From the sequence record NC_054909.1: a stretch of DNA of 64,000 bases; one strand, written 5' to 3'. The position numbers were made by a program, and so were the translations under genes. The notes under the pieces were generated by a model, which was not told the origin of the DNA, did not search any database, and worked only from the letters and a program-made list of their open reading frames with translations. Source of the stretch: Escherichia phage EC121. The first letter of the stretch is position 1; each line of letters starts with the position of its first letter. Shown piece after piece: positions 12,795-47,470 of this stretch.

Positions 12795-13412
12795 ATGTAC
12801 CACTTTGTATATGAAACAACAAATCTAATAAATGGTAAAAAGTATATAGGAAAACACTCTACTGATGACTTGAATGATGGTTACCTTGGTTCCGGTAAGG
12901 CAATTCAGCAGGCTATAAAGAAATATGGTGAAAACAATTTCTCTAGAACAATACTAAAAGAGTTTAAAACTTCCGAAGAAGCGTACATGTATGAAGAAGA
13001 AATTATAACTCCTGAACTAATAAAAAGCAAAAATTATTATAATATGAAACCTGGTGGAATTGGTGGAATTGTTATGACTGCAGAGGTTATAGCAAAGATG
13101 AAAGAATCTTCCGCTAAGAGATTTGAAAACTCACCGGGCACGGTATTAGGTACAACTTGTTACACTAATGGAACTAAAAATATTTTTATTAAACCTGGAG
13201 AACTTGTTCCAGAAGGATTTGTAAAAGGGATGGTTCATCTTAATAGAAAGTCCAGAAAAGGATGTAAAGTCAAACCGACTACCACAGGAACTTTTTGGGT
13301 CAATAATGGAGCAATAAATAAATTAATACAACCAGACGGTATTATTCCCGACGGATTTATTAAAGGTCGTCTCATGAAAAGAGACTCTAAAGGCAAATTT
13401 AGTAAGGCATAA
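12795..13412 (+). CDS. segE: GIY-YIG homing endonuclease of the Seg family (T4 SegE position)
   Basis: N-terminal GIY-YIG-type motif (HFVYETTNLINGKKYIGKH); free-standing between inh and uvsW, where segE lies in T4. Confidence 0.75.
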   Translation: MYHFVYETTNLINGKKYIGKHSTDDLNDGYLGSGKAIQQAIKKYGENNFSRTILKEFKTSEEAYMYEEEIITPELIKSKNYYNMKPGGIGGIVMTAEVIAKMKESSAKRFENSPGTVLGTTCYTNGTKNIFIKPGELVPEGFVKGMVHLNRKSRKGCKVKPTTTGTFWVNNGAINKLIQPDGIIPDGFIKGRLMKRDSKGKFSKA

Positions 13413-13414
13413 TT

Positions 13415-14923
13415 ATGGATATTAAAGTACATTTTCACGACTTCAGTCATGTACGCATCGATTGTGAAGAGAGCACGTTCCACGAATTAAGAGATTTCTT
13501 TTCGTTTGAGGCCGATGGATATAGGTTTAATCCTCGCTTCAGATATGGCAACTGGGATGGACGAATCCGTCTTTTAGATTATAATCGCCTTCTTCCATTC
13601 GGTTTAGTCGGGCAAATTAAAAAGTTCTGTGATAACTTTGGCTATAAAGCCTGGATTGACCCGCAAATTAACGAAAAAGAAGAATTATCAAGAAAAGATT
13701 TTGATGAATGGCTTTCTAAATTAGAAATCTATTCAGGAAATAAAAGAATTGAACCGCATTGGTATCAAAAAGATGCAGTGTTCGAAGGATTAGTTAATCG
13801 TCGTAGAATTCTTAATCTTCCAACATCCGCAGGTAAATCTTTAATTCAAGCTTTGCTTGCTCGGTATTATTTGGAAAATTATGAAGGTAAAATTCTTATC
13901 ATTGTTCCAACAACTGCTCTGACAACTCAGATGGCTGATGACTTTGTTGACTATCGTTTATTCAGTCATGCAATGATAAAGAAAATCGGCGGTGGAGCAT
14001 CAAAAGATGATAAATATAAAAATGATGCACCAGTCGTTGTTGGTACATGGCAAACTGTAGTAAAACAACCGAAAGAATGGTTCTCACAGTTTGGAATGAT
14101 GATGAATGATGAATGTCATCTTGCTACAGGAAAAAGTATTTCATCTATCATATCAGGTTTAAATAACTGTATGTTTAAATTTGGTTTGTCTGGTTCATTA
14201 CGTGATGGCAAAGCTAATATCATGCAGTATGTTGGAATGTTTGGCGAAATATTTAAGCCAGTAACGACTTCTAAATTAATGGAAGATGGACAAGTAACTG
14301 AGTTAAAAATTAATAGTATTTTTCTTCGCTATCCCGATGAGTTCACTACTAAATTAAAGGGAAAAACTTACCAAGAAGAAATAAAAATTATTACTGGACT
14401 CAGTAAAAGAAATAAATGGATCGCTAAATTAGCTATTAAGCTTGCACAAAAAGATGAAAACGCTTTTGTCATGTTTAAACACGTATCGCACGGTAAAGCT
14501 ATTTTCGATTTAATTAAAAATGAATACGATAAAGTTTATTACGTATCAGGGGAAGTTGATACCGAAACACGCAACGTAATGAAAACCTTAGCTGAAAACG
14601 GTAAAGGAATAATTATAGTAGCTAGTTATGGTGTATTTTCTACTGGTATTTCAGTTAAAAATCTGCATCACGTTGTTTTAGCGCACGGTGTTAAATCAAA
14701 AATCATTGTATTACAAACAATCGGTCGTGTATTACGTAAGCACGGTTCTAAGACAATAGCAACGGTCTGGGACCTCATAGATGACGCGGGCGTAGTTTCT
14801 AAATCAAAAACATCTTCTAAAAAATACTCGCATTTAAACTATCTTTTAAAACATGGACTTGATCGTATTCAGCGTTATGCTGATGAGAAGTTTAATTATG
14901 TGATGAAAGAGGTTAAACTTTGA
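13415..14923 (+). CDS. uvsW: UvsW DNA/RNA helicase
   Basis: 502-aa ORF with helicase motifs (LPTSAGKS Walker A, DECH box). Confidence 0.92.
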   Translation: MDIKVHFHDFSHVRIDCEESTFHELRDFFSFEADGYRFNPRFRYGNWDGRIRLLDYNRLLPFGLVGQIKKFCDNFGYKAWIDPQINEKEELSRKDFDEWLSKLEIYSGNKRIEPHWYQKDAVFEGLVNRRRILNLPTSAGKSLIQALLARYYLENYEGKILIIVPTTALTTQMADDFVDYRLFSHAMIKKIGGGASKDDKYKNDAPVVVGTWQTVVKQPKEWFSQFGMMMNDECHLATGKSISSIISGLNNCMFKFGLSGSLRDGKANIMQYVGMFGEIFKPVTTSKLMEDGQVTELKINSIFLRYPDEFTTKLKGKTYQEEIKIITGLSKRNKWIAKLAIKLAQKDENAFVMFKHVSHGKAIFDLIKNEYDKVYYVSGEVDTETRNVMKTLAENGKGIIIVASYGVFSTGISVKNLHHVVLAHGVKSKIIVLQTIGRVLRKHGSKTIATVWDLIDDAGVVSKSKTSSKKYSHLNYLLKHGLDRIQRYADEKFNYVMKEVKL

Positions 14924-15612
14924 ATTATAAATTAATATACGATAATTTAATTAATAGAGCCCAGAATCGGGCTCGCCTTAATGGATACACTGAAACTCAT
15001 CATATAATTCCTAGATGTATGGGCGGTACAGATGATAAGTGTAATTTGGTAGAACTAACAGCTGAAGAGCATTTTATAGCTCATAAACTTTTAGCTAAAA
15101 TTCATCCAAACCATTACGGTATAATTAAAGCCGTTATATGTATGGGGATGAATTCAAAGACTCATGAAAGACACGTTAATAAATCTTACGCCTGGGAACG
15201 TCGTAAAATGGCAGAACTTCAATCAGGTGAAGGTAATCCATTTTACGGAAAACACCATACGGAAGAACATAAACAATATATGTCAAAACTCATGAAAAAT
15301 CGTCCAATTACATGGGGAAGTAAAATTAGTAAAACTAAAAGAATGAACCCAACAAAATGGACTGAAGAAGCTAAAAGATTGCATTCTATCAATCAATCAG
15401 GTAAAAATAATGGCATGTATGGAAGGAAACATTCCGCTAAATCTATTCAGAAAATTAAAGATAATATGCCAGATAATTCAGGAGCTAATAACCCAGCTGC
15501 TAAACCTATAGAAGTAAATGGTGTTAAGTATAAATGTATGAAAGATGCTTCTAAAGCTACTGGATTATCAATGTACAAACTAAGAATACTTAGAAAAACA
15601 GTTAATTTATAA
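14920..15612 (+). CDS. HNH homing endonuclease, MobE-like paralog, inserted between uvsW and uvsW.1
   Basis: 230-aa ORF; N-terminus closely resembles the mobE product in this window; HNH core ETHHIIPRCMGG...NLVELTAEEHFIAH; apparent TTG start at 14920 overlapping the uvsW TGA, with AAGAGG 7 nt upstream. Confidence 0.75.
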   Translation: MNYKLIYDNLINRAQNRARLNGYTETHHIIPRCMGGTDDKCNLVELTAEEHFIAHKLLAKIHPNHYGIIKAVICMGMNSKTHERHVNKSYAWERRKMAELQSGEGNPFYGKHHTEEHKQYMSKLMKNRPITWGSKISKTKRMNPTKWTEEAKRLHSINQSGKNNGMYGRKHSAKSIQKIKDNMPDNSGANNPAAKPIEVNGVKYKCMKDASKATGLSMYKLRILRKTVNL

Positions 15613-15626
15613 GGGCTTCGGCCCTT
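15611..15626 (+). terminator. UUCG-loop hairpin between the HNH gene and uvsW.1
   Basis: AAGGGC-TTCG-GCCCTT immediately after the HNH stop and before the uvsW.1 ribosome-binding site. Confidence 0.45.
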
Positions 15627-15637
15627 TGGAGAAAAAG

Positions 15638-15868
15638 ATGTTACTAGAATTTAAACAATTTCTTTATGAAGCTTCTATTGATGAATTTATGGGTAAAATT
15701 GCCTCTTGTCAAACATTAGAAGGTTTAGAAGAACTTGAAGCTTATTATAAGAAAAGAGTCAAAGAAACTGAATTAAAAGATACTGATGACATCTCCGTGA
15801 GAGATGCTTTGGCAGGAAAAAGAGCTGAATTAGAAGATTCAGACGATGAAGTAGAAGAAAGCTTTTAA
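15638..15868 (+). CDS. uvsW.1: UvsW.1 small acidic protein
   Basis: Start moved to ATG at 15638 (MLLEFKQFLYEA..., 76 aa as in T4); supplied ORF begins at an upstream TTG. Confidence 0.85.
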   Translation: MLLEFKQFLYEASIDEFMGKIASCQTLEGLEELEAYYKKRVKETELKDTDDISVRDALAGKRAELEDSDDEVEESF

Positions 15869-15877
15869 ATTAAAAAA

Positions 15878-15900
15878 GGCCCAACCAAAAAGGAAGGGCC
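15878..15900. terminator. Imperfect hairpin between convergent uvsW.1 and uvsY.-2
   Basis: GGCCC...GGGCC inverted repeat with an internal A-rich loop. Confidence 0.3.
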
Positions 15901-15923
15901 AAAACTATAGACTAAAGGTCACA

Positions 15924-16091
15924 CTATAGCAAAAGTTGTGTTTCATTTAATTGTTCTTCCGAACTTTCTGAAACTGGTAGTTCTTTAATGTAATTATAGC
16001 AAGGCCCAGGATGTACAGGACCTTTGTCTGTTTCAACAACCAATGCAGAATCGATTGGAGTTTTACAGACAACACAAATCTTATCTGACAT
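15924..16091 (-). CDS. Small Cys-containing protein (T4 uvsY.-2 position)
   Basis: 55-aa minus-strand ORF translated by hand (MSDKICVVCKTPIDS...PCYNY...), AGAGGAG Shine-Dalgarno upstream; below the ORF-track length cutoff. Confidence 0.55.
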   Translation of the reverse strand: MSDKICVVCKTPIDSALVVETDKGPVHPGPCYNYIKELPVSESSEEQLNETQLLL

Positions 16092-16119
16092 GATTGTCTC
16101 CTCTGAATTATATATCTAT

Positions 16120-16344
16120 TTATACAACTCTCATATGCATATCAATGCCCATATCTTTAGAATAAAAATATTCATCAAGATATCCGGCAAATTTTCCTTT
16201 AATATAAAGGACATCTTCACTGCACGGGTGGTCGGCCAGGATACGAATATCCTGACGCTTAAGATTATACTTTTTCATTAAGAATTGAATTTCCGTTTCA
16301 AATTCTTCTTCATAATTAAAAGCATCATCAATGTTATATCTCAT
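16120..16344 (-). CDS. Hypothetical protein (T4 uvsY.-1 position)
   Basis: 74-aa ORF; TAATG overlap with the uvsY stop. Confidence 0.7.
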   Translation of the reverse strand: MRYNIDDAFNYEEEFETEIQFLMKKYNLKRQDIRILADHPCSEDVLYIKGKFAGYLDEYFYSKDMGIDMHMRVV

Positions 16345-16757
16345 TATTTTCCAGCCTCAAATGCCCGCATGTCTTGAATATGCTTAATAGCAAATCCACG
16401 TGATTTAATAGCATCAAGAGCTCCGCTACAGAAATCTAATAAAATCCCCCAATACTGTAACGAGGTATCAACCTTTAAAACATCCTTATCAGCTGATAGA
16501 ACTGTTTTCATTTCTGATTTCTCATAACGATCCATACTAAATTCATCACCATCTCCTCGTCCCGAGTAGTAGTCTAATTTAGCTTTAAGAGCAACTTTTT
16601 TCTGTGCTTCAATTCTAAGCATTTCCTTTTTAATACTTGAATGCTTATTAAGCCATTTACTATATAACATCACATTATTAGCTGCTTCATACTGTAATTT
16701 AGTCGAATCTATAAACACATCTTTCTTCAATTCTTCTTGAAGATCTTCTAATCTCAT
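16344..16757 (-). CDS. uvsY: UvsY recombination mediator
   Basis: 137-aa ORF matching T4 UvsY. Confidence 0.93.
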   Translation of the reverse strand: MRLEDLQEELKKDVFIDSTKLQYEAANNVMLYSKWLNKHSSIKKEMLRIEAQKKVALKAKLDYYSGRGDGDEFSMDRYEKSEMKTVLSADKDVLKVDTSLQYWGILLDFCSGALDAIKSRGFAIKHIQDMRAFEAGK

Positions 16758-16797
16758 ATTGTTCTCTATTCAATTGTTATTGGATGGACTTAGATTC

Positions 16798-16823
16798 ATT
16801 ATACCACGTTTTAACGTGAAGCA
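16798..16823 (-). promoter_or_regulatory. T4 middle-type promoter for uvsY (MotA box plus -10)
   Basis: Minus strand reads ATGCTTCA, a 13-nt spacer, then TATAAT, about 40 nt upstream of the uvsY ATG. Confidence 0.55.
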
Positions 16824-17222
16824 TTATACTCTATTACTGGAAGCCAGTTGCAGTTTTATCTGCTCAATATCATCAGGGTTATCAATGACCGAAAAGCGTA
16901 TTTCTACTATCAGAGTATAATCATCATAAACTGGTATTACATTAACTGCTAATTTATCAATACGCGGCTCGTAGTTTCTTACTGCGCTTTCAATGTTACG
17001 CTCAACAGTATCAGCAGTAAGAGGAGTCATATTCTCAAAAAGCTGATCAGATAAATCACATCCAAATTCCGGGTCAAATGGTCTCGACCCTTTTCTGGTT
17101 GTAATAATTCCCAAAAGGCTATTTTTAATTGACCTTAATCCAAGAGATCTAGAAACATCTTTGTCCCAATCCATTTTCATTTCTGGGTCAATGTCAGAAT
17201 AAAGCTTATTAATATTTGCCAT
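16824..17222 (-). CDS. 25: Baseplate wedge protein gp25
   Basis: 132-aa ORF; T4 gp25 size and position. Confidence 0.9.
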   Translation of the reverse strand: MANINKLYSDIDPEMKMDWDKDVSRSLGLRSIKNSLLGIITTRKGSRPFDPEFGCDLSDQLFENMTPLTADTVERNIESAVRNYEPRIDKLAVNVIPVYDDYTLIVEIRFSVIDNPDDIEQIKLQLASSNRV

Positions 17223-17848
17223 TACAATAGCTCAAAGAATTCTTTGAGTCCTCTTATTACATGAGCGTGAGATTTTCCACACTCTGGACACTTAATTGGA
17301 ACAGCCAAATACACAGTAGGCTTTAAAAGCATATCTTTTATAGCTACAATATCTGACTCTGTGATGATAGAATATAAATCTTCCAACTCTTTTTCATTTA
17401 AGTCTTCAATTGGAATGCTTTCACCGTTAGCATGAATCGTTTCTATACATGATACTATCATGTGGGCTATATTTTTATCATCAAAAATTTTAGGGTAATG
17501 GAACTTAATTTTAATGTCACCCAGTGTATACCAGAGGTCTTCTGGTGCATCTATTTGTGTATGTAATAGATTTATATGGGTTGGTATTTCAGTTCCGCAG
17601 GTGCACTTCCAGGAGTTTTCGTGATTAACTTCGCCGAGAGAATGTGCCCATAAATGAATCAACAATAGTTCTGATTCTTGGCGGTTTAAATCTTTTGCAT
17701 TTGTGCAGTCTTTGATTAGCTTTTTAACAATTACTTCTACGGAACCATTATTTTTGGCAGTAATAAGTTCTAGATATTCTTTAAGCGTGAATGCGCGACA
17801 ATTGATTATTTTAGAACCAACTCTCACATCAAATTTGTATTCATACAT
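17222..17848 (-). CDS. 26: Baseplate hub protein gp26
   Basis: 208-aa ORF with AAGGAG Shine-Dalgarno; T4 synteny. Confidence 0.88.
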
Positions 17849-17870
17849 ATTTTAGCTCCTTTATTTATCA

Positions 17871-17882
17871 TATTTATAAATA
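17871..17882. promoter_or_regulatory. Divergent back-to-back late promoters in a 12-bp palindrome
   Basis: TATTTATAAATA reads TATAAATA on both strands, between gene 26 (minus) and gene 51 (plus). Confidence 0.55.
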
Positions 17883-17899
17883 GAATAAAAGGAGCATCT

Positions 17900-18649
17900 A
17901 TGGCAAACATTATTCGTTGTAAATTACCAGATGGTGTTCATCGTTTTAAACCATTTACGGTAGAAGATTATCGAGATTTTTTGTTAGTTCGAAACGATAT
18001 AGAACATCGGTCACCACAAGAACAAAAAGAAATAATTACTGATTTAATTGATGATTATTTTGGAGACTATCCGAAGACTTGGCAACCATTTATATTTTTG
18101 CAGGTATTTGTAGGGTCAATAGGTAAAACTAAAGTACCGGTCACATTTGTATGTCCAAAATGTAAAAAAGAAAAGACAGTTCCATTTGAAATATATCAAA
18201 AAGAATTAAAGGAACCTATTTTTGATGTAGCTAATGTTAAAATTAAATTAAAGTTTCCTTCTGAGTTTTATGAAAATAAAGCAAAGATGATTACTGAAAA
18301 TATTCATTCTGTTCAAGTAGATGAAATATGGTATGATTGGAAGGAAATTAACGAGTCCAGTCAAATAGAACTAGTTGACGCCATCGAGATAGAAACATTA
18401 GAAAAAATTCTCAATGCAATGAATCCTATTAATTTAACTCTACATATGTCATGCTGTAATAAGTACATTAAAAAATACACTGATATAGTAGACGTGTTTA
18501 AGCTATTAGTTAACCCAGATGAGATATTTACTTTTTATCAAATTAATCACACACTCGTAAAAAGTAATTATAGCTTAAATTCAATAATGAAAATGATTCC
18601 TGCTGAGCGCGGATTCGTATTAAAACTGATTGAGAAGGATAAACAATAA
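17900..18649 (+). CDS. 51: Baseplate hub assembly protein gp51
   Basis: 249-aa ORF; T4 synteny. Confidence 0.88.
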
Positions 18650-19824
18650 TGAGTATGCTGCAACGCCCAGGATATCCAAATCTCAGCGTTAAATTATTTG
18701 ATAGCTACGACGCTTGGAGTAATAATAGATTTGTTGAATTAGCTGCTACTATTACCACATTAACTATGCGGGATTCTCTTTATGGCCGAAATGAAGGAAT
18801 GCTGCAGTTTTATGATTCTAAAAATATCCATACAAAAATGGATGGAAATGAAATAATTCAGATTTCTGTAGCTAATGCAAACGATATTAATAATGTTAAA
18901 ACACGAATTTATGGATGTAAGCATTTTTCTGTATCTGTAGATTCAAAGGGTGATAACATCATTGCTATTGAATTGGGAACTATTCATTCCATAGAAAATC
19001 TTAAATTTGGCAGACCGTTTTTCTCTGATGCAGGTGAATCTATAAAGGAAATGCTTGGCGTCATTTATCAGGATCGCACGTTATTAACTCCAGCAATAAA
19101 TGCTATAAATGCTTATGTTCCTGATATTCCATGGACTAGCACATTTGAAAACTATTTGTCGTATGTCAGAGAAGTTGCTCTAGCTGTAGGAAGTGACAAA
19201 TTTGTATTTGTGTGGCAAGACATCATGGGAGTTAACATGATGGACTATGATATGATGATAAATCAAGAACCGTATCCAATGATTGTCGGTGAGCCATCTT
19301 TAATAGGTCAATTCATCCAAGAATTAAAATATCCATTAGCATATGATTTCGTTTGGTTGACTAAATCGAATCCTCACAAACGCGACCCAATGAAAAATGC
19401 TACTATTTATGCTCATTCATTTTTAGATTCTTCATTGCCAATGATTACTACAGGAAAGGGCGAAAACTCTATTGTAGTGTCAAGGTCAGGTGCTTATTCT
19501 GAAATGACTTATAGGAATGGCTATGAAGAAGCTATTCGTCTTCAAACTATGGCGCAATATGACGGCTATGCTAAATGTTCTACTGTCGGTAATTTTAACT
19601 TGACTCCTGGCGTTAAAATTATTTTTAATGATAGTAAAAACCAATTTAAAACAGAATTTTACGTTGATGAAGTTATCCATGAATTATCCAATAATAATTC
19701 AGTAACTCATCTATATATGTTCACTAATGCAACGAAACTGGAAACAATAGACCCAGTTAAGGTTAAAAATGAATTTAAATCTGATACTACCACTGAAGAA
19801 AGTAGTTCTTCCAATAAGCAATAA
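18649..19824 (+). CDS. 27: Baseplate hub protein gp27
   Basis: 391-aa ORF; T4 size and position. Confidence 0.9.
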
Positions 19825-24518: not shown

Positions 24519-26576
24519 CTACATTTTGAACTTTTTAGACATTCCGTTGATGTTAACCAAAGAAGCTAAGATTTGAGAAACTTCGTTTTCCTCTTCTTTT
24601 GATTCTTCTACAAGGAATTGATTAAATCCAGCCATTGGACGAACTTCACCAGTTTCCATTAGATGGTCGCCATCATATACTGATTCTTCTAATTGTTCAG
24701 AAGGAGGAACGATTGTGCCTTCAATTAGATACTTGTTATAAGCAGTTTCTTTCATCATGTACGTGCTTACTTTATTAATCTTCAACAAAATTCCACGCGG
24801 TAGAATAACTTCAGCTTCTGATGGAAATCCTGATAAATGACCTGGAACGATAACTTTAATTCGCTCAGCTCCTTTTATTACCATACCCACGCTAGTTTCA
24901 GCATCTTCATTAGCATATGCGGAATGACTACCCATATGCATTAAATCTTCGGCATCAACAGAACCTTCTCCTTCACCAGAAAATACTGCGCCGGAATCAT
25001 CTAGAGCCATATAGTTTTTACCATGCTCACCGAAGATATTTGGTTTAAGCGATGTTGATACGAAGTTCTTGAAATAGAACATTTTATTTTCAATATTATG
25101 GCGTAAAGTTTTAAAAGTAACTTCTTGTCCACGATAAAGCGTAGTTCCCGGAGGAAGAACTGATCCTTTGGCGAATGCAGAATCCAACGTCTCGATGTGT
25201 TTAATAGCTCGTTCCATGTATTCTTCACGGGTAGAATCTGGTTTACCCAAGAGGAACGAGTTCATTTCAACATATGAATCTGCACAATAATCTTCAATTA
25301 CATCAGACTCAGCCTGAGTCAGTCCTTTTGGAGTTACTTCGGTGCTTGCGTATTCATATGCCTGAGCAGCAGATTCATTAATCAATTTATAAATGCCATT
25401 CATGACAAATTGAATAATAGCTACCTTTTCGTCTGGTGTGGCTTTAGAACCTTTAACTAAATCATTGATAATTTTCTTAATAACATCAAAGCTATTAGAA
25501 ATATTAATGTCAGCGAGATCGCTCAAAATTTTATCGGTTTTATAATCAAAAAATTCTTTATTCTTTAAATATTCTTGAGAACCTTGATGTGTTATATCGC
25601 TCTGCAGTCTGATAGACGGATCACGTAAACGTGCATGGGCCAATGCAATATGATTTCGGAAGCTTTCTAGTTCATAATCGTTAGATTTAAAACGAGAAGC
25701 ACTTCTCATACCACCGATAGCTCCTTTGCCGAAGTTTGAACCAATCTGAATAACGCCAGAGTTCATTGGTCCTTCTGCTTTATATACAGGAACTTTAGAT
25801 TCAAACTCTTGATATTTCTTGGCAGCGAAGCTATCACCCTGAAGTGAAGCATCGACAGTAGAATATTGAGCTTGCGCTGCTAATCGACGACTAATTTTAG
25901 TTTTCTGAATAACAGCTTGATCCGTGCGCTTATCATTTTCTAAAGCAATAGAAGCAGCAACAGCAACAGCTTTAGGAACAGCATTACCTGTTTTAACATC
26001 TACATAAACATCACCAACCTTTGATTCAACTTTTGTGAATAACTCAGTTGAAATAGGAGGTACGCCTGGAATGTCTTCTAAATTGGCATTTTTACGGTAA
26101 ACCATAATATATGCATACTTTTTATCATAATCCCAGATTTCCTTTAAAAGAACATATCGACCTGCTCCTTTAGTACGTACTAAACGATCAGCAATAACTT
26201 GCATTTGACGAGCTGCGCCATTTGTTTTACTTTTTAGTACGCGGAATAGGCATGCGTCAATTTTATACTGTTTCATTGTTTGAAGAGCAGTATCAAAAAC
26301 CGCATTAATGACACCAATTGGATTTCCACCCAAGTTTTTAAGTTTAACTAATGATAGTTTCTCATTAACACCTATCATTACGATATGCATCATTTTATCG
26401 CCTGGCTTAACGTTTTTATTTGTATCACCACCAGAGGTGTATGTACAAAATCTAAATCCAGGAAGCACACTTTCTTCGCCGGCTTGAATAGCAAAAATTT
26501 GAGGTATTTTATGCTTAGGATTTAAGTTAACAACCGGCGCCGAAGCGCCGTCAAATAATTCTGTAATAAGTTCCAT
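24519..26576 (-). CDS. ADP-ribosyltransferase paralog, Alt-like (T4 alt.-2/alt.-1 position)
   Basis: 685-aa ORF; N-terminus MELITELFD shared with Alt; R / STS / E toxin-type ART motifs in the C-terminal half. Confidence 0.8.
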   Translation of the reverse strand: MELITELFDGASAPVVNLNPKHKIPQIFAIQAGEESVLPGFRFCTYTSGGDTNKNVKPGDKMMHIVMIGVNEKLSLVKLKNLGGNPIGVINAVFDTALQTMKQYKIDACLFRVLKSKTNGAARQMQVIADRLVRTKGAGRYVLLKEIWDYDKKYAYIMVYRKNANLEDIPGVPPISTELFTKVESKVGDVYVDVKTGNAVPKAVAVAASIALENDKRTDQAVIQKTKISRRLAAQAQYSTVDASLQGDSFAAKKYQEFESKVPVYKAEGPMNSGVIQIGSNFGKGAIGGMRSASRFKSNDYELESFRNHIALAHARLRDPSIRLQSDITHQGSQEYLKNKEFFDYKTDKILSDLADINISNSFDVIKKIINDLVKGSKATPDEKVAIIQFVMNGIYKLINESAAQAYEYASTEVTPKGLTQAESDVIEDYCADSYVEMNSFLLGKPDSTREEYMERAIKHIETLDSAFAKGSVLPPGTTLYRGQEVTFKTLRHNIENKMFYFKNFVSTSLKPNIFGEHGKNYMALDDSGAVFSGEGEGSVDAEDLMHMGSHSAYANEDAETSVGMVIKGAERIKVIVPGHLSGFPSEAEVILPRGILLKINKVSTYMMKETAYNKYLIEGTIVPPSEQLEESVYDGDHLMETGEVRPMAGFNQFLVEESKEEENEVSQILASLVNINGMSKKFKM

Positions 26577-26579
26577 GAT

Positions 26580-28673
26580 TTATCCTTGAACGAACTTGTA
26601 AGGCATGTTTGTAATATCTATGCAAGACGCAATAATTCCAAGAGATGATTCTACTTTTTGTTTAACATTTGATGAAACAAATGATGCAAAGTCAACTCTG
26701 TCTTCTATTTCAATATCACCTGTCATTGCAACTACTTCACCAGTTTCCATTAGACGGTCACCGTCATAAATTACTGATTCGGTGAGTTCTTCCGTAGTCA
26801 TAACTTCAGCTTGAATGAGTTTTGTATTATTAGATGTTGTTCCGTCATTATTAGAAGCATCAGTTATTTTATTAACTTTGACCATCAATCCGCGTGGTAG
26901 AATAACTTCAGCTTCTGTTGCTATTCCGAGACTTCCTGGATATACAACATTAACTTTATGAGCTCCATCAATTGCCCATCCTATTTGAACTTTAACGTAT
27001 TCAGGATTTTCTTTATACGCTCTTATTTCGTTTGGATTAATAGTTATTCCTTCTTCATTTTTATCAACTGTTAATTCATTACGAGCTTCTGGTTCTAAAA
27101 GACCAATACCAGCATGTGTAATTCCAAAACGTCCAAAAATGATAGGAGTTAAAGAAGTAGATACAAAATTTCTGAAATAGAATACTTTATTTTTAACTAG
27201 TGCTTCGTATATAGGAGCAGTCATACTTTGAGCACGATAAACTGTAATGCCTTCTGGTATACGGTCACCATTTTCAAAAGCTGAATCTAAGTTATTTATA
27301 GCAGATTCAATTTCTTTTTCACTCATTACATCATATCGTTCTGGATTGTAGCGTCCTAAAAGAAGATTATTGATGTCAGTATATCCTGAACCGCAATACT
27401 CTCTAATGCCGCGCTTTTGTGATGGAGTATATTTAGAACCATCACGGGCAATAGTAATATCAATCATTGGACCTGCACCAATTCCAGAAAAGCTATAAAT
27501 CATTCGTTTGAGGAATTTAGTTTTTGCTGCGTTCCAGGAATTTTTAGTTATTTCTTCCCAGACTTCATCTGGCTGTCCTTTACGGGTTTTATTATGTTTA
27601 TCAAGCCAATTATCTTTATATTCTTCAAAGAGTTGATTAACAGCTGCTGCGTATTTCTCCAAACATTTTATTGAAGTAGTTGGTTCATTTTTAATCGCAT
27701 TAAGAATTACATCTTTAATCTTTTCAGAAACTTCATTAACCTCACTTTTTGAAAAGAATTTATAGTCATAATGAAGTTCATCTGCAGTTCCTTCAGCAAT
27801 AATTTTTGCTGCCTTAGTTTTAGAAGCTAATGAATTAATTCCAAGCTTCATTTCTTCTGCTTCGGGAATTAAAGGAGCTGTAGCAGGTTTATTGAAATTA
27901 GCTGCGGTAGATTCATACTTCTGGAATAATTCACTTTCAAATCTAGAAGATTCTAATGATTGACTTTGTGCAATTGCTCTACGGGAAATTTTAACTTTAA
28001 CGATTACAGCTTGGTCAGAACGTTTATCGTTTTCTTGCGCAATAGATGCTGCAATTGCCTCATTTTTAGTTACTTGAGCTCCGGTATCTTTATTGATATA
28101 AACATCACCGACCTTCGATTCAACTTTAGTAAAGAGCTCGGTACTAATTTCTGGAACTCCTGGAATGTCTTCTAGTGATACATTTTTACGATGTATAAGA
28201 ATATATGCATACTTTTTATCGTAATCCCAGAGTTCCTTAAGAAGGACGTATCTGCCACCTGAACGACTACGGATAAGTCTATCAGCAATAACTTGAATTT
28301 GTCGAGCTTGGCCAGCAGTTTTAGACTTAAGAATACGAAGCATACAAGCATCAATTTTATATTGACGCATTGTTTGCATTGCAACAGTAAAAACTGAATT
28401 GATATAATTAATTGGGCTTGGACCAAGACCTTTTAATTTAGCAATTGAACCTTTAGCAGTTAATGTAAAAGGAACAATGTGCATCATTTTGTCGCCCATT
28501 TTTAAATCGCGATTAGTATCACCTCCAGATGTATATGTACATAAACGAAAGCCTGGTTGTTCAATTGCATCATCAACATGAACTGAAAAAATTTGTGGTA
28601 TTTTCTTCTTTGGATTTAAGTTTGTAATCGGAAGAGTAGTATCTTCGTCAAATAATTCTGTAATAAGTTCCAT
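26580..28673 (-). CDS. alt: ADP-ribosyltransferase Alt (virion-packaged, modifies host RNA polymerase)
   Basis: About 697 aa from the second ATG; ART motifs; adjacent to gene 30 as in T4; late promoter upstream. Confidence 0.75.
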   Translation of the reverse strand: MELITELFDEDTTLPITNLNPKKKIPQIFSVHVDDAIEQPGFRLCTYTSGGDTNRDLKMGDKMMHIVPFTLTAKGSIAKLKGLGPSPINYINSVFTVAMQTMRQYKIDACMLRILKSKTAGQARQIQVIADRLIRSRSGGRYVLLKELWDYDKKYAYILIHRKNVSLEDIPGVPEISTELFTKVESKVGDVYINKDTGAQVTKNEAIAASIAQENDKRSDQAVIVKVKISRRAIAQSQSLESSRFESELFQKYESTAANFNKPATAPLIPEAEEMKLGINSLASKTKAAKIIAEGTADELHYDYKFFSKSEVNEVSEKIKDVILNAIKNEPTTSIKCLEKYAAAVNQLFEEYKDNWLDKHNKTRKGQPDEVWEEITKNSWNAAKTKFLKRMIYSFSGIGAGPMIDITIARDGSKYTPSQKRGIREYCGSGYTDINNLLLGRYNPERYDVMSEKEIESAINNLDSAFENGDRIPEGITVYRAQSMTAPIYEALVKNKVFYFRNFVSTSLTPIIFGRFGITHAGIGLLEPEARNELTVDKNEEGITINPNEIRAYKENPEYVKVQIGWAIDGAHKVNVVYPGSLGIATEAEVILPRGLMVKVNKITDASNNDGTTSNNTKLIQAEVMTTEELTESVIYDGDRLMETGEVVAMTGDIEIEDRVDFASFVSSNVKQKVESSLGIIASCIDITNMPYKFVQG

Positions 28674-37164: not shown

Positions 37165-38364
<1,200 letters not shown>

Positions 38365-38368
<4 letters not shown>

Positions 38369-39735: not shown

Positions 39736-39799
39736 CATAAAGTCCTCATGTTATGTCAGTAAGATTACTATAACACAACACGAGGGACTTGTAAACAGC

Positions 39800-41387
<1,588 letters not shown>

Positions 41388-41409
41388 AATAAAATGGGCC
41401 TTGCGGCCC
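41388..41409 (-). terminator. Terminator-like hairpin between nrdB and denA
   Basis: GGGCC-GCAA-GGCCC on the minus strand followed by AUUUUAUU. Confidence 0.5.
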
Positions 41410-41414
41410 ACTCC

Positions 41415-42593
41415 TTAAAAGTATTTTTTAAAACTCATCATAACTTTATCATCAACATCATTATCAATCTGTGCAACAAGATAAGATGACAGTTCTACTT
41501 CTTGCGGCGCGGATTGAACATTATCAGAATTAAGGTATTCACGAATCCAAGGATATGGATGTTTAACCGGAGCATCGGTAATCGGGCATGGAAGACCACA
41601 CTGTTTCATACGAGATACAGTTAAGTAATCAATAAAGCTCCACATGCTATTTGTATTTAATCCAGGAACATCGCCATCTTTAAATAAATGAACTGCCCAA
41701 TCTTTTTCTTGACGGTTAACTTCCATGAAAATATCAACTGCTTCTTGTTCACACTCTTTGGCAATTTTAACCCATTCATCGCCATCAGTACCAGATTGAA
41801 GTTGACGAATAATATATTGTGTACCTTTAAGATGAAGCTGCTCATCACGTGCAATAAATTTCATAATCTTCGCATTACCTTCCATGATTTCCATGTTCTT
41901 ATGGAAGTTGAAAGTACATGCAAAGGATACATAAAAACGAATAGCTTCCAGAGCATTGATAACGTGCAGACAGAGATAAAGCGACTTCATCAGGTCTCGT
42001 TTACATTCTTCCAAATGAGTGAGACTGTTTGAATATGCTTCTAAATCATATTCATTTTCAGCAAAATAACTAAAGTTTTCTTTGGCGTTTTCCCAAATAC
42101 GTGTCTTGTCCAGAACATCATCATAATAACGACCCATAGATTCAGCACGTTTCATGATAGCTTTATCTAATACAATCTCATCAAATACCCTTGACGGATC
42201 AGTATAAAGATTTCGCATAATATGAGTGTATGAACGACTGTGAATAGTTTCACTAAAAGTCCATGTAGCAACCCATGTATCAAGGCTTGGGTCTGAAATC
42301 AATGACATAAGTACAGCAGACGGTGCACGACCCTGAATGCTATCCAGAAGTGATTGATACTTCAGATTATTAGTAAAAATATTCTGCTGATATTGAGGAA
42401 GCTTATTAAACTGTGCAGCATCCATCATTAAGTTTACTTCTTCAGGACGCCAGAAAAATGATAATTGCTTTTCGGTCAAATCTTCAAAAACTTTATGGCG
42501 TTGAATATCATAACGCGCAATACCAAGACCTGAACCAAAAAACATAGGTTCTTTTAAAACATCAACTGGATTTGTATTAAAAACTGTAGACAT
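41415..42593 (-). CDS. nrdB: Ribonucleotide reductase small subunit NrdB, uninterrupted
   Basis: Continuous 392-codon frame from ATG at 42593 (MSTVFNTNPV...); no intron or I-TevIII ORF. Confidence 0.9.
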   Translation of the reverse strand: MSTVFNTNPVDVLKEPMFFGSGLGIARYDIQRHKVFEDLTEKQLSFFWRPEEVNLMMDAAQFNKLPQYQQNIFTNNLKYQSLLDSIQGRAPSAVLMSLISDPSLDTWVATWTFSETIHSRSYTHIMRNLYTDPSRVFDEIVLDKAIMKRAESMGRYYDDVLDKTRIWENAKENFSYFAENEYDLEAYSNSLTHLEECKRDLMKSLYLCLHVINALEAIRFYVSFACTFNFHKNMEIMEGNAKIMKFIARDEQLHLKGTQYIIRQLQSGTDGDEWVKIAKECEQEAVDIFMEVNRQEKDWAVHLFKDGDVPGLNTNSMWSFIDYLTVSRMKQCGLPCPITDAPVKHPYPWIREYLNSDNVQSAPQEVELSSYLVAQIDNDVDDKVMMSFKKYF

Positions 42594-43324
42594 TAATTTT
42601 TCCTCTTTAAAATTCTGCCGCGTTTCCAACCTGGCGGTATAATATCATCTTTACCTATAAGCGTGCATTCACTTCCATTATTAATCCATTTCTTACCGCG
42701 GATTCCTTTATAATCTCTTGGTTGTATTTTGTCAAACTTTGCATCAGGTTGATATGCCCATCTAAATCCATAGGCATATTGAAATTTACCCTCAGCACAA
42801 TATTTGATATTTGACCCGTTTCCATTAACTGACCTGGACGCTGCCGCAATAGAGTGAAAGGTTTCTATGAAATCCCCATCTAATGAGAATTTATGTATTT
42901 CGATAGATGGGCATGCATACCTATTCACGTTTGATACATGTCGTTTAGTTTCGTTTTTATGATGCTTGCCTAACATTCCTCTAGGATGAGGATTATTTTT
43001 CCAGTATTTCTTAAAGAAATCAGAATTAGCTTTAGCAAATAATTTTCTGTGCAAGCTATACAATCTGTTATTAATTCTATTACCAGCTTTATCTGTTGCC
43101 ATTAACGTTAACGCAGAGGCAAGCCCAAAATGGCCTTCATTTATCTTACATAGTAATAGATGCGCTATAAAATGTTCTCTAGCTGTTAATTCAACTAAAT
43201 TTTCTTTATCATCAGAACCTCCCATGCATTTAGGGACTATATGATGTGTCTCTTTATATTCGGATAAAGGTTCCCGAGCCTGAGCTCGGGAAATTAGGTC
43301 GTTATAGATTTTTTGATAATTCAT
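42593..43324 (-). CDS. mobE: HNH homing endonuclease MobE
   Basis: 243-aa ORF with HNH core (ETHHIVPKCMGG...NLVELTAREHFIAH); between nrdA and nrdB as in T4; start and stop overlap its neighbours (TAATG at both ends). Confidence 0.8.
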   Translation of the reverse strand: MNYQKIYNDLISRAQAREPLSEYKETHHIVPKCMGGSDDKENLVELTAREHFIAHLLLCKINEGHFGLASALTLMATDKAGNRINNRLYSLHRKLFAKANSDFFKKYWKNNPHPRGMLGKHHKNETKRHVSNVNRYACPSIEIHKFSLDGDFIETFHSIAAASRSVNGNGSNIKYCAEGKFQYAYGFRWAYQPDAKFDKIQPRDYKGIRGKKWINNGSECTLIGKDDIIPPGWKRGRILKRKN

Positions 43325-45588
43325 TACAATTTACACGCTGCACAATCGTCGGCTTTTGGAGTTTCTATTTCATAATCATCAGTACCGGAACCATCACGGG
43401 TATTATGATAATAGAAATTTTTAATGCCATAATACCATCCGTATAGCATATCATCAATCATTATTGACATTGGAACCTTTCCTTTTGGAAAAATCTGCGG
43501 GTCATAATATGTATTCGCTGAAGCTGATTGACATACCCATTTAAGCATAATAGCTACCTGCGTAAGATAAGGTTTATTACCTTTCTTAGCTAATTTCCAT
43601 GTATAATCATAGAGGTCTATGTTATGTTCAATATTGGGCACGACTTGATTAAAGGAACCCTCTTTTGATTCTTTAACAGAGACTGGTCCACGTGGAGGCT
43701 CGATACCGTTTGTACTGTTAGAAACTTGGGAAGATGACTCACATGGCATAAGTGCTGATAATGTGCTATTACGGATGCCAAAGAGCTTAAGGTCTTCCCG
43801 CAGCTCCGACCAGTCACAAACGTATTTTGGAGCTGCGATTTGGTCAATCTTTTTATTGTACCAGTCGATAGGTAATTCGCCTCGAGACCAACGAGTGTCT
43901 GAATAATATTCGCAAGGTCCTTTTTCTTTGGCGAGCTTAATGGATGCTTTAATGAGCCCATACTGTAATCTCTCAAATAGTTCATGTGTTAAATCGTTAG
44001 CATCTTCATAAGAAGCAAAGTTACTTGCCAGCCAAGCTGCATAGTTAGTAACACCTACGCCAAGGTTTCGACGCTTTTTAGCTTTTTCTGCTTCAGGAAC
44101 TGGATATCCTTGGTAATCCAAAAGATTATCAAGAGCGCGAACTTGAACTTCTGCTAATTCATTAATTTTATCTTGGTCTTGCCAATCAAAGTTATCCAAC
44201 ACAAATGCAGATAACGTGCACAATCCAATTTCAGCATCAGGACTATTCACATCATTTGTTGGAATAGCAATTTCACAACACAGGTTACTCTGACGAATCG
44301 GTGCCTTTTCACGAATAAATGGAGTATAGTTATTCGTATTATCAATGAACTGTACATAAATCCTTGCTGTTCCTGAGCGTTCAGTCATGAGCAATTCAAA
44401 CAGTTCACGGGCTTTAATACGCTTTTTACGAATATTAGGGTCTTTTTCTGCAGCTTCGTATAATTCACGGAAACGGTCTTGGTCTTTAAAATAAGAATAA
44501 TAAAGCTCGCCACCCATTTCATGCGGACTGAACAAAGTAATGTAGTCGTTCTTTCCGAATCGTTCCATCATCAAATCATTCAGCTGGACACCATAATCCA
44601 TATGGCGGATACGGTTTTCTTCTACGCCTTTGTTATTTTTCAAAACGAGAAGATTTTCAACTTCCAAATGCCAAATAGGATAATAAGCAGTAGCAGCGCC
44701 GCCACGAATTCCACCCTGTGAGCATGATTTAACAGCAGTCTGAAAATGTTTCCAAAAAGGAATAACACCAGTATGGCGTACTTCACCTGTGCCAATCTTA
44801 GAACCTTCGGCACGAATCATACCAACGTTAATACCAATTCCAGCGCGTTTGGAGATATATTCAACAATTGAAGCGGAAGCCTTATTGATAGACTTCAGCG
44901 AATCACCTGCTTCAATAACAACGCATGAACTAAACTGCCGGGTTGGAGTACGACATCCAGCCATAATAGGAGTTGGCAATGAAATCTGTCGAGTAGATAC
45001 CGCTTCATAAAAACGGATAACGTGTTTTAATCTATCAACAGGTTCATCTTGATGCAATGCCATTCCAATAGTCATAAATGCAAACTGTGGAGTTTCATAA
45101 ATTTGACCAGTGGTTTTATCTTTAACTAGATATTTTTCTTTTAATTGCATCGCCCCGGAATAAGTAAATTCCATATCCCGTTCATGCTTAATTTTTGATT
45201 CTAAAAATGTAATTTCTTCTGCTGAATATTTTGACAACAATTCAGGGTCATATTTACCTTCATTTACGCAGTAAGAAATATGGTCAATAAATGAACGTGG
45301 TTCATACTGTCCATAAACATGCTTACGAAGAGCGAACATTAAACAGCGTGCAGCTACGTATTGATAATCAGGCTCTTCAACTGAAATAGAATTCGCAGCA
45401 GCCTTAATTACAATGGTTTGAATGTCATCAGTTGTCATTCCATCACGGAGATATGATTTAATATTTTCATATAATTCATAAGGATCTACTGATGTTCCTT
45501 CAGCTGCCCAAGATAAAACTTTAATAATTTTTTGTGGGTCAAAGCTCTGAGAAACACCACTACTTTTGATAACATTAATTAATTGCAT
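43324..45588 (-). CDS. nrdA: Ribonucleotide reductase large subunit NrdA
   Basis: 754-aa ORF matching T4 NrdA. Confidence 0.95.
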   Translation of the reverse strand: MQLINVIKSSGVSQSFDPQKIIKVLSWAAEGTSVDPYELYENIKSYLRDGMTTDDIQTIVIKAAANSISVEEPDYQYVAARCLMFALRKHVYGQYEPRSFIDHISYCVNEGKYDPELLSKYSAEEITFLESKIKHERDMEFTYSGAMQLKEKYLVKDKTTGQIYETPQFAFMTIGMALHQDEPVDRLKHVIRFYEAVSTRQISLPTPIMAGCRTPTRQFSSCVVIEAGDSLKSINKASASIVEYISKRAGIGINVGMIRAEGSKIGTGEVRHTGVIPFWKHFQTAVKSCSQGGIRGGAATAYYPIWHLEVENLLVLKNNKGVEENRIRHMDYGVQLNDLMMERFGKNDYITLFSPHEMGGELYYSYFKDQDRFRELYEAAEKDPNIRKKRIKARELFELLMTERSGTARIYVQFIDNTNNYTPFIREKAPIRQSNLCCEIAIPTNDVNSPDAEIGLCTLSAFVLDNFDWQDQDKINELAEVQVRALDNLLDYQGYPVPEAEKAKKRRNLGVGVTNYAAWLASNFASYEDANDLTHELFERLQYGLIKASIKLAKEKGPCEYYSDTRWSRGELPIDWYNKKIDQIAAPKYVCDWSELREDLKLFGIRNSTLSALMPCESSSQVSNSTNGIEPPRGPVSVKESKEGSFNQVVPNIEHNIDLYDYTWKLAKKGNKPYLTQVAIMLKWVCQSASANTYYDPQIFPKGKVPMSIMIDDMLYGWYYGIKNFYYHNTRDGSGTDDYEIETPKADDCAACKL

Positions 45589-45905
45589 AAGTCCTCAACT
45601 TGAAAATCGTCTTTAAACAATCGGTTAACTATATGAGCTATTATATCACCATGACACGGCTTCAGTTTACATGTGCATCCTAGCCTCATTCCACGTAAAG
45701 GCTCTAAATGTGCTTTAGTTATTTCTCCGGATTTAATTCGACGTATAAAATCTTTTTTGAATAATTCAATGGCAGCCTCCCGGCTGCCAGCATCTTTACC
45801 GACGTAATTTCCCCAAAATGTACCACGGTGAATATTAACATCAAAGTCGGATTTATATTTATTCACTACCTGACATAGACGGCCCGCGCGGTGATAATTC
45901 GTCAT
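45579..45905 (-). CDS. Hypothetical protein (T4 nrdA.1 position)
   Basis: 108-aa ORF named by synteny. Confidence 0.6.
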
Positions 45906-46134
45906 ATTGTTTTTCCGTTAAAACAGTAATATCATAATAACAATCAGAAGAAGTTTTAACTGTAGAAATTTTATTATCAAAATACTCACGAGTCATTTTA
46001 TGAGTATAATATTTTTTGCCATAAATGATAATAGGCTGATTTGGTCCTGGAACTTCTAACTCGCTTGGATTAGGAAGTGTAAAAAGAACGACACCAGAAG
46101 TATCTTTAAATCGTAAAATCATATATCCTCGCAA
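45859..46134 (-). CDS. Hypothetical protein (T4 nrdA.2 position)
   Basis: 91-aa ORF; overlaps the previous ORF by 47 nt, so its start is uncertain. Confidence 0.55.
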
Positions 46135-46142
46135 TAATAAAA

Positions 46143-46454
46143 TTACACCGCCATCTTTCCTTTAATAGGAGGATGTGATTCATAGTTGTTAAGAACAAAA
46201 TTATGAGGCTTTGCAAATTGACTCAACCAAAATACCTGCGATTCTGTGTCCCATTCATCAAATTCATCTGGAAATTTTAATTGTAATTCGCATAAATCCA
46301 TAGGTTCACGACATAAAATTTCTTTACATTGTTCTACGTGATTCATATAGATATGAGTATTACCACCAGAAAATATCAAATCTCCAGGAATAAGATTACA
46401 CATCTTAGCTACAATATGAACTAACGTAGCATATGATGCAATATTAAATGGTAG
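46143..46454 (-). CDS. td: Thymidylate synthase exon 2
   Basis: Frame begins CUACCG (LPFNIASY...) immediately after the intron-terminal AUG. Confidence 0.9.
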
Positions 46455-47470
46455 CATTATGTTCAGATAAGGTCGTTAATCTTACCCCGGAATTATATCC
46501 AGCTGCATGTCACCATGCAGATCAGACTATATCTCCAACTTGTTAAAGCAAGTTGTCTATCGTTTCGAGTCACTTGACCCTACTCCCCAAAGGGATAGTC
46601 GTTAGGCATTTATGTAGAACCAATTCCATTTATCAGATTTTACACGATAAGTAACTAATCCAGACGAAATTTTAAAATGTCTAGCTGCATCTGCTGCACA
46701 ATCAAAAATAACCCCATCACATGAAATCTTTTTAATATTACTAGGCTTTTTACCTTTCATCTTTTCTGATATTTTAGATTTAGTTATGTCTGAATGCTTA
46801 TGATTAAAGAATGAATTATTTTCACCTGAACGATTTCTGCATTTACTACAAGTATAAGCAGAAGTTTGTATGCGAACACCGCACTTACAAAACTTATGGG
46901 TTTCTGGATTCCAACGCCCGTTTTTACTTCCGGGTTTACTGTAAAGAGCTTTCCGACCATCAGGTCCAAGTTTAAGCATCTTAGCTTTAACAGTTTCAGA
47001 ACGTTTCTTAATAATTTCTTCTTTTAATGGATGCGTAGAACATGTATCACCAAACGTTGCATCAGCAATATTGTATCCATTAATTTTAGAATTAAGCTCT
47101 TTAATCCAAAAATTTTCTCGTTCAATAATCAAATCTTTCTCATATGGAATTTCTTCCAAAATAGAACATTCAAACACATTACCATGTTTGTTAAAAGACC
47201 TCTGAAGTTTTATAGAAGAATGGCATCCTTTTTCTAAATCTTTAAAATGCCTCTTCCATCTCTTTTCAAAATCTTTAGCACTTCCTACATATACTTTATT
47301 GTTTAAAGTATTTTTAATCTGATAAATTCCGCTTTTCATAAATACCTCTTTAAATATAGAAGTATTTATTAAAGGGCAGTCCTACAATTTAGCACGGGAT
47401 TGTCTACTAGAGAGGTTCCCCGTTTAGATAGATTACAAGTATAAGTCACCTTATACTCAGGCCTCAATTA
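46455..47470 (-). mobile_element. Group I self-splicing td intron (1016 nt) carrying the I-TevI gene
   Basis: 5' end reads UAAUUGAGGCCUGAGUAUAAGGUGAC... and 3' end ...UUAACGACCUUAUCUGAACAUAAUG, as I remember the T4 td intron termini. Confidence 0.88.
46602..47339 (-). CDS. GIY-YIG homing endonuclease I-TevI (intron-encoded)
   Basis: 245-aa ORF within the td intron; GIY-YIG N-terminus (GIYQIKNTLNNKVYVGSA) and C-terminal zinc-finger/DNA-binding region. Confidence 0.92.
   Translation of the reverse strand: MKSGIYQIKNTLNNKVYVGSAKDFEKRWKRHFKDLEKGCHSSIKLQRSFNKHGNVFECSILEEIPYEKDLIIERENFWIKELNSKINGYNIADATFGDTCSTHPLKEEIIKKRSETVKAKMLKLGPDGRKALYSKPGSKNGRWNPETHKFCKCGVRIQTSAYTCSKCRNRSGENNSFFNHKHSDITKSKISEKMKGKKPSNIKKISCDGVIFDCAADAARHFKISSGLVTYRVKSDKWNWFYINA

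Follow-up and report, generated by a model that had tools for sequence, protein, structure and literature searches.

A 64,000-nucleotide stretch of the genome of Escherichia phage EC121 (sequence record NC_054909.1), referred to below as the window, contains four homing endonuclease genes: segE, a Mob-like HNH gene at the end of the helicase gene uvsW, mobE between the nrdA and nrdB genes, and I-TevI within the group I intron of td (Table 1). BLASTN analysis against a phage collection identifies the window as a segment of a Tequatrovirus (T-even) genome, and its collinear partner in T4 (NC_000866) is 98,585-160,570, from gene 18 to gene t, with few discrete insertions and deletions in the BLASTN map. 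A first-pass annotation had described the four endonuclease genes as full-length, and indeed each of the open reading frames (ORFs) is present where it was placed and is equal in length to its closest counterpart: T4 SegE with 205 amino acids (aa), T6ORF179 with 230 aa, RB3 MobE with 243 aa, and T4 I-TevI with 245 aa. For comparison we used the homologous 50 kb of T6, T2, RB3, KMB39, KFS-EC3, G28, SYGD1 and pSe_SNUABM_01, which together with T4 and the window make ten genomes; endonuclease sites were scored by tblastn, and the mosaicism of the backbone was measured in 500-bp tiles. It is very probable that the window holds four intact, already catalogued homing endonuclease genes and that the sites occupied in T4 by segD, segG and I-TevIII are unoccupied.

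Table 1. Endonuclease genes, neighboring genes and unoccupied sites in the window
Feature	Coordinates	Strand	Remarks
Empty segD site	7942-8024		83-bp gap; gene 23 end 7941, gene 24 start 8025
segE	12795-13412	+	205 aa; free-standing GIY-YIG gene; TATAAATA upstream
uvsW helicase	13415-14923	+	502 aa; endonuclease genes on either side
Divergent uvsW 3' tract	14757-14923	+	goes with the HNH gene; KEVKL* end, GAGG, TTG start
uvsW-end Mob-like HNH gene	14920-15612	+	230 aa; T6ORF179 equivalent
Displaced resident uvsW terminus	15595-15612	+	AAAACAGTTAATTTATAA, encoding KTVNL*; now the end of the HNH ORF
uvsW.1	15638-15868	+	76 aa; true ATG at 15638; preceded by the GGGCTTCGGCCC hairpin, 15613-15624
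nrdB	41415-42593	-	intron-less; empty I-TevIII intron site at ~41917-41920
mobE, RB3 type	42593-43324	-	243 aa; HNH + NUMOD1
nrdA	43324-45588	-	upstream of mobE, co-oriented
td exon 2	46143-46454	-	T6-like allele
td group I intron	46455-47470	-	1016 nucleotides; T4 splice junctions
I-TevI	46602-47339	-	245 aa; intron-encoded GIY-YIG
td exon 1	47471-48019	-	intron boundary mapping
Empty segG site	51409-51507		99-bp gap; gene 32 start 51408, gene 59 stop 51508

To which families do these endonucleases belong? SegE aligns with T4 SegE over its full length (205/205 aa, 98.0% identity), the two proteins differing by four substitutions (T96A, D97E, K120T and P149L); it matches PF19835 (E 6.6e-9) and reaches 21.5 bits for PF01541, just below the 22.6 cut-off. 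I-TevI is 100% identical to the T4 enzyme (245/245 aa) and contains PF01541 (E 2e-18), zinc finger and DNA-binding domains. Both SegE and I-TevI fall into phrog_314 of the PHROGs database. The two HNH proteins fall into phrog_655 (E 1e-58 to 1e-62), match T4 MobB, MobC, MobD and MobE by BLASTP (E 1e-19 to 3e-41), and display the H..N..H residues. Their C-terminal DNA-binding regions consist of NUMOD3 repeats and an I-TevI-like segment in the uvsW-end protein and of NUMOD1 in MobE. The first-pass annotation counted three families, which is correct in the T4 nomenclature (seg, mob and I-Tev); by sequence there are two, namely GIY-YIG (phrog_314) and Mob-type HNH (phrog_655). Substitutions relative to the reference proteins are few, and all of them lie outside the catalytic motifs. 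We note that the last ~32 aa of SegE and of the RB3-type MobE (window 13287-13382 and 42602-42697) are 50% identical. This C-terminal module would be common to both nuclease families, which fits the known modular shuffling of these proteins.

The T4 segE gene lies between inh and uvsW, and the window copy has the same locus, orientation, length and upstream late-promoter motif, TATAAATA. The Mob-like genes are free-standing and co-oriented with their neighbors, and their starts overlap the upstream stops; that they have no promoters of their own was judged from the lack of intergenic space. These expression contexts agree with the descriptions of the T4 genes (Edgell 2010, PMC2988022). Kadyrov et al. 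1997 (cited in PMC2988022) described T4 SegE, a GIY-YIG homing endonuclease of the free-standing kind, and site-specific cleavage and biased inheritance have been established for both T4 SegE and I-TevI (PMC2988022). By analogy with the published work on T4 SegE, MobE, SegG and I-TevI, the four window copies are probably active. In the phage collection segE occurs in 165 records, I-TevI in 185, the uvsW-end HNH gene in 47 (at coverage of at least 80%) and the RB3-type mobE in 53, and hence the HNH gene and the RB3-type mobE are the rarer features of the window.

How is an endonuclease gene accommodated at the very end of uvsW? Relative to T4, BLASTN shows an insertion of ~680 bp at this position. 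The protein encoded by the inserted gene is 97.8% identical to T6ORF179, and the gene itself is 100% identical at the nucleotide (nt) level to the KFS-EC3 copy; T6ORF179 and the corresponding genes of Yersinia phage PST ('mobD'), KFS-EC3, HY03 and other phages share the locus and the junctions with no substantive difference. The N-terminal nuclease domain is 43-57% identical to T4 MobB, MobC, MobD and MobE and 39-47% identical to T6 and RB3 MobE, and the alignments with T4 MobD and MobE are limited to the N-terminal ~75-130 aa, so the gene is not an orthologue of either mobD or mobE. The C-terminus resembles the DNA-binding domain of I-TevI (PDB 1i3j, E 0.006), another likeness that would fit modular shuffling. 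In the empty sites of T2 and RB3 the sequence runs ...ATGAAA ACAGTTAATTTATAA GGGCTTCGGCCC TTTGGAGAAAAAGATG, corresponding to the uvsW end KTVNL*, the hairpin and the uvsW.1 start. In the occupied sites, that is, in seven of the seven genomes with the HNH gene, ...ATGAAA is instead followed by GAGGTTAAACTTTGA, which encodes a replacement uvsW end, KEVKL*. The TTG start codon of the HNH gene overlaps the uvsW TGA stop codon (cTTTGAat), and GAGG lies six nucleotides upstream. At its other end the HNH ORF terminates in ...AGAAAAACAGTTAATTTATAA, the displaced resident uvsW terminus, which retains its original frame and supplies the last five codons and the stop codon of the HNH ORF.

The flanks of the insertion differ in their conservation. 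Over the last ~165 nt of uvsW, genomes with the HNH gene share 96-98% identity with one another and 80-83% with genomes that lack it, and the uvsW.1 side of the cassette is 98.6-100% identical in all compared genomes. The divergent tract occurs at 95% identity or more in 47 records, as many as contain the HNH gene. The standard Tequatrovirus allele is 73-77% identical to the divergent tract, a distance comparable to that of the alleles of other genera. The uvsW 3' end of Escherichia phage OES_C-2 is chimeric: its first ~75 nt are the HNH-linked variant, the remainder is resident, and there is no HNH gene. This tract is either a recombinant or the product of partial conversion. Beyond Tequatrovirus, a 260-aa HNH gene lies at the same uvsW/uvsW.1 junction in the Dhakavirus Bp7 and shares the GAGG...CTTTGAATTAT arrangement, including a TTG start that overlaps TGA. 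The Bp7 uvsW end is KEVQL* rather than KEVKL*, and its nuclease domain is 49% identical to that of the window protein over 68 aa, whereas the C-terminal regions are unrelated. Moreover, the 3' end of the Bp7 gene overlaps the uvsW.1 start, while the window gene reuses the uvsW terminus instead.

What would such an arrangement accomplish? The imported divergent uvsW 3' end would restore the helicase C-terminus as KEVKL* and would bring with it the GAGG ribosome-binding site and the TTG start codon, and the overlap of TTG with the uvsW TGA would permit translational coupling of the HNH gene. Since it supplies the translation start of the endonuclease, we infer that the divergent uvsW end belongs to the mobile unit. 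The HNH endonuclease most probably has its target in the 3' end of the resident uvsW. We propose, tentatively, that the uvsW-end HNH gene is an active, uncharacterised and self-contained cassette in three parts (a replacement uvsW end, a nuclease ORF and a reused host terminus) that targets the resident uvsW 3' end and has reached this one junction in no fewer than two genera, Tequatrovirus and Dhakavirus, with its DNA-binding domain swapped. The anatomy of the cassette is the sole detail that our analysis adds to the existing annotation. We also considered, and rejected, the idea that uvsW and uvsW.1 were one continuous gene until the HNH gene divided it, in the way that mobE divides nrdA in phage Aeh1. 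The two genes are separate in T4 and in five other T4-like genomes examined (Nolan et al. 2006), and a split that is conserved in this way was not created by the HNH gene; the 587-aa fusion of uvsW with uvsW.1 in the T4 RefSeq record NC_000866.4 is a retained, known sequencing error.

The second Mob-like gene is tightly packed between its neighbors. The nrdA stop and mobE start overlap in TAATGA, and the mobE stop and nrdB start overlap in TAATG. The first-pass annotation called this gene mobE, a name that is appropriate to the locus and to the N-terminal domain; the allele is that of RB3, and the C-terminal half is unrelated to T4 MobE. The window protein is 98.8% identical to RB3 MobE (AY262130 / KM606994; 243 aa), with the substitutions Q128R, S190A and L193P, and RB3 has the same one-nucleotide overlaps with nrdA and nrdB. 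The two phages differ in that RB3 nrdB carries an intron with I-TevIII and the window nrdB carries neither. The T4 and T6 genes (PMC2790892) lie at the same nrdA/nrdB locus as the window gene, are coupled to nrdA through the same UAAUGA and encode a homologous HNH domain at the N-terminus, but homology to T4 mobE is not full-length: only residues 1-105 of the window protein align with T4 and T6 MobE (63-68% identity), and window 42594-43155, encoding the C-terminal half, has no T4 counterpart by BLASTN or protein comparison. This half is of the NUMOD1 type in the window protein and NUMOD3/zinc-finger-like in T4 and T6; being unrelated, it suggests that the target specificity of the window MobE may differ from that of T4/T6 MobE. 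For T4 MobE, nicking or cleavage has been shown in vivo on T2 nrdB (PMC2790892).

Several further features of the nrd locus deserve mention. The T4 nrdB intron with its defective I-TevIII (T4 138457-139058) is missing from the window by BLASTN, and no I-TevIII match was obtained there by tblastn. In the 5' part of nrdB (tile 42001-42500) the window is 92% identical to KMB39, ~78% identical to RB3, G28, SYGD1, pSe_SNUABM_01 and T2, and 69-73% identical to T4, T6 and KFS-EC3. Thus, there are at least three nrdB 5' alleles, even within one mobE type, and this diversity may be related to variation in the MobE target site. In the related Logan contig SRR14630084 (11625-14793), a 236-aa ORF that gives a faint I-HmuI NUMOD-like match separates nrdA into two ORFs and has the appearance of one more endonuclease gene inserted in the nrd hotspot. 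Finally, the T4 RefSeq record NC_000866.4 lists mobE as 141 aa with a separate nrdB.1, and the 213-aa T6 MobE aligns across both T4 frames, which suggests a frameshift in T4 mobE, either in the record or in the strain.

The intron-borne gene presents a different pattern of conservation. When 46455-47470 is removed from td, the resulting thymidylate synthase of 286 aa is intact and can be aligned with the uninterrupted td of T2. In the tile comparison, intron identity with T4, T6 and RB3 is 99.6-100% (99.6-99.8% to T4, with one tile 100% identical to T6, RB3 and pSe_SNUABM_01), whereas the td exons are 86-96% identical. An intron so much more conserved than its exons is a classic sign of recent intron spread, and conserved introns within divergent exons have long been reported in these terms (references in PMC2988022). 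The window exons differ from the T4 flanks, being a T6-like allele that is 86-93% identical to T4. This T6-like allele adjoins an intron identical, within the tile values just given, to that of T4. The 3' part of exon 2 (46143-46300) is 96% identical to T6 and 70-86% identical to the others, and the C-terminal ~30 residues of the thymidylate synthase are strongly unlike those of T2.

Could some or all of the four genes be inactive passengers or domesticated, the mosaic having arisen from general homologous recombination alone? Several points favor this reading: T4 itself has defective copies (I-TevIII and mobA), G28 I-TevI is truncated, the HNH gene begins with TTG, which suggests that its expression is low, and MobE activity has proved difficult to demonstrate in vitro (Wilson and Edgell 2009, PMC2790892). 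Nevertheless, we consider it improbable. None of the four ORFs is shortened, their motifs are intact, and I-TevI is identical to the active T4 enzyme; the few substitutions in the Mob-like proteins lie outside the HNH motif; and both the excess conservation of the intron over its exons and the one-sided divergent tract, in its close linkage with the HNH gene, are what endonuclease-driven conversion would be expected to leave behind.

We next turn to the sites at which T4 carries elements that are absent here. As the first-pass annotation reported, the gap between genes 23 and 24 is 83 bp and that between genes 32 and 59 is 99 bp, although both of these empty sites fall outside the range 12795-47339 that it gave. 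Its placement of the T4 genes segD and segG at these positions agrees with the T4 RefSeq record, in which segD occupies 106561-107232 between genes 23 and 24 and segG occupies 147909-148541 between genes 32 and 59, and with the table of Edgell et al. 2010 (PMC2988022). BLASTN shows that the corresponding T4 blocks, 106521-107311 for segD and 147918-148542 for segG, are missing from the window. The segD-site gap contains a terminator-like hairpin, GGGACCTTCGGGTCCC, and the late-promoter motif TATAAATA. A tblastn search of the window with all T4 Seg, Mob and I-Tev proteins and RB3 I-TevIII gave matches at four loci only, with no remnants of segD, segG or other T4 elements; SegD matched weakly, and only to the GIY-YIG domains of segE and I-TevI, and SegG had no match.

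Are these sites pristine, or did they lose their elements? One alternative is that the empty segD, segG and nrdB-intron sites reflect precise loss from an ancestor and not a history without invasion. An endonuclease gene can be cleanly removed when, during a mixed infection, its locus recombines with an empty allele, and the chimeric uvsW tract of OES_C-2, with no HNH gene, is compatible with such an exchange. We regard precise loss as unlikely, given the lack of remnants and the close identity of the gaps to the empty sites of T2 and other element-less genomes: the tile at 7501 is 98.6-99.8% identical to segD-less T2, RB3, KMB39 and KFS-EC3, and the tile at 51001 is 97.6-98.8% identical to segG-less G28, T2, T6 and KFS-EC3. 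The empty state is also that of the majority. Roughly 450 related records span at least 80% of the first 25 kb of the window, a tally that includes GenBank/RefSeq duplicates; segD is found in 53 of them and segG in 142, so empty sites are the usual condition. T4, with 15 homing endonuclease genes, is the outlier (PMC2988022).

Five points weigh against the interpretation of the window as four intact homing elements beside unoccupied sites. First, the Mob-like proteins score 16.8 and 19.3 bits for the Pfam HNH domain PF01844, against a gathering threshold of 21.4, and their assignment is therefore founded on the BLASTP matches to the T4 Mob proteins and on phrog_655. Second, a search of the whole window with Rfam at the gathering threshold returned neither the td intron nor any other RNA, and hence the intron is identified by its near-identity to the T4 intron; the long inserted ORF is a possible reason for the Rfam miss. 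Third, TTG is a weak start codon, and the HNH protein is possibly made very little or not at all. Fourth, for no phage did the searchable literature yield experimental work on the uvsW-end HNH gene, and we found no data on the specificity of the RB3-type MobE. Fifth, at the empty sites, a never-invaded and a precisely-lost history are indistinguishable by sequence.

Does the complement of endonucleases place the phage among its relatives? Relative to T4 the complement is mosaic, as the first-pass annotation proposed, with four genes present and segD, segG and I-TevIII absent. It suggested tabulating the endonuclease genes of T4, T2, T6 and the RB phages, and the tabulation against T4, T2, T6, RB3 and others (Table 2) bears out the absence of segD and segG while exposing what had been overlooked, the absent nrdB intron and I-TevIII. 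The window is also not identical to any searched record: the best matches of its 25-kb chunks are at 96-97%. A further suggestion, that the profile is the most informative signature for placement, does not hold.

Table 2. Homing endonuclease profiles of the ten genomes (+, present; -, absent)
Genome	segD	segE	uvsW-end HNH	I-TevIII	mobE	I-TevI	segG
Window	-	+	+	-	RB3 type	+	-
T4	+	+	-	defective	T4 type	+	+
T6	+	+	+	-	T4 type	+	-
T2	-	-	-	-	-	-	-
RB3	-	+	-	+	RB3 type	+	+
KMB39	-	+	+	-	RB3 type	+	+
KFS-EC3	-	+	+	-	-	-	-
G28	- (JS98-like small ORF instead)	+	+	-	RB3 type	truncated	-
SYGD1	-	-	+	-	RB3 type	none (td annotated in two parts)	+
pSe_SNUABM_01	-	+	+	+	RB3 type	+	+

The ten genomes display ten distinct combinations, and the genome closest to the window switches every 0.5-2 kb along its length. 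The first 25 kb are best matched by SH-1, KFS-EC3 and T6 at 96-97% and the second 25 kb by the RB3 group at 96%; for neither chunk does BLASTN find a searched record above ~97% identity. The 4.5 kb around segE and uvsW have 97-98% matches to KFS-EC3, T6, HY03, PST and many more, and six contigs with the 68-aa ORF of the td/frd interval are 94-95% identical to the window and have other endonuclease combinations. An exact-sequence look-up found neither the MobE nor the SegE protein of the window on record. It has to be asked whether the profile could nevertheless be a stable, vertically inherited signature of one T-even lineage, since every element is a discrete presence/absence character and since T6 and the window have in common segE, the HNH gene, I-TevI, an empty segG site and an intron-less nrdB. 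We find this very hard to sustain. T6 differs from the window at segD and in mobE type; KFS-EC3, with an identical HNH gene, lacks mobE and I-TevI; and RB3, whose mobE is 99% identical, has no HNH gene and carries both segG and I-TevIII. Likewise, the nearest relatives are not the same in the two 25-kb halves. The profile is, on these sequence comparisons, a fingerprint of recombination and homing, and no dependable marker of relationship.

How would such a pattern arise? By analogy with published work on T4, the presence and absence of these elements was probably produced by homing. These genes are selfish elements: in a mixed infection, an endonuclease would cut or nick the allele that lacks it, near the position of its own gene, and recombinational (double-strand-break) repair would then copy the endonuclease gene together with some of the donor flank, which is co-converted. 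Expression would occur via read-through and translational coupling, as established for T4. In a co-infection with T4, the window phage would be expected to pass on its mobE allele as well as the HNH cassette, and to receive segG, the nrdB intron and perhaps segD. Because every element spreads independently of the remaining genome and T-even phages recombine freely, each isolate would have its own combination. That T-even phages vary in their homing endonuclease content has been on record since the late 1980s, and this variation underlies T2/T4 marker exclusion (PMC2988022).

Other parts of the window also depart from T4. The RNA ligase 2 gene rnlB (9341-10345, minus strand) is a divergent allele, with 82% aa identity to T4 and 77-87% nt identity to all nine compared genomes, and is the least conserved segment of the backbone outside the tail-fibre genes. 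Two full-length alt-like ADP-ribosyltransferase genes lie in 24528-28673, of which 26583-28673 is 70% identical to T4 Alt at the aa level and 24528-26576 is 41.5% identical; T4 has only the remnants alt.-1/alt.-2 at the second position, and the two-gene layout is common to T6, T2 and RB3. The distal tail-fibre region (59498-63626) is unlike that of T4: gp37 is 34% identical in aa to the T4 protein, T4 gp38 has no match in the region, and the tail-fibre tip may be of the non-T4 (T2/T6) kind. Three further non-T4 segments contain small accessory ORFs that occur in other T-even phages too and in which no recognisable nuclease domain was found. On the minus strand, 38066-38368 encodes a 100-aa RB32ORF217c-like ORF between pseT and pseT.1, and 48803-49392 encodes ORFs of 81 aa and 111 aa between frd and frd.1; both segments are absent from T4. 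The third, 48019-48225 (minus strand), encodes a 68-aa ORF with no Pfam match between td and frd, an interval that has no ORF in T4 and a different 348-bp ORF in T6, T2 and RB3. This 68-aa ORF is widespread, the exact protein being found in 660 blocks of an assembly collection.

What, finally, do these observations mean for the T-even phages? The biology is the ordinary patchwork of a T4 relative, with no new kind of element; only the particular combination of elements is new, and this is expected of any new T-even isolate. As one more combination of known elements, it has little significance beyond bookkeeping. The comparison does caution against placing phages by the presence or absence of their endonucleases, characters that are highly homoplastic. 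In addition, the HNH cassette could serve as an easy system for studying how an endonuclease gene inserts inside the coding end of a host gene and leaves that gene unharmed.

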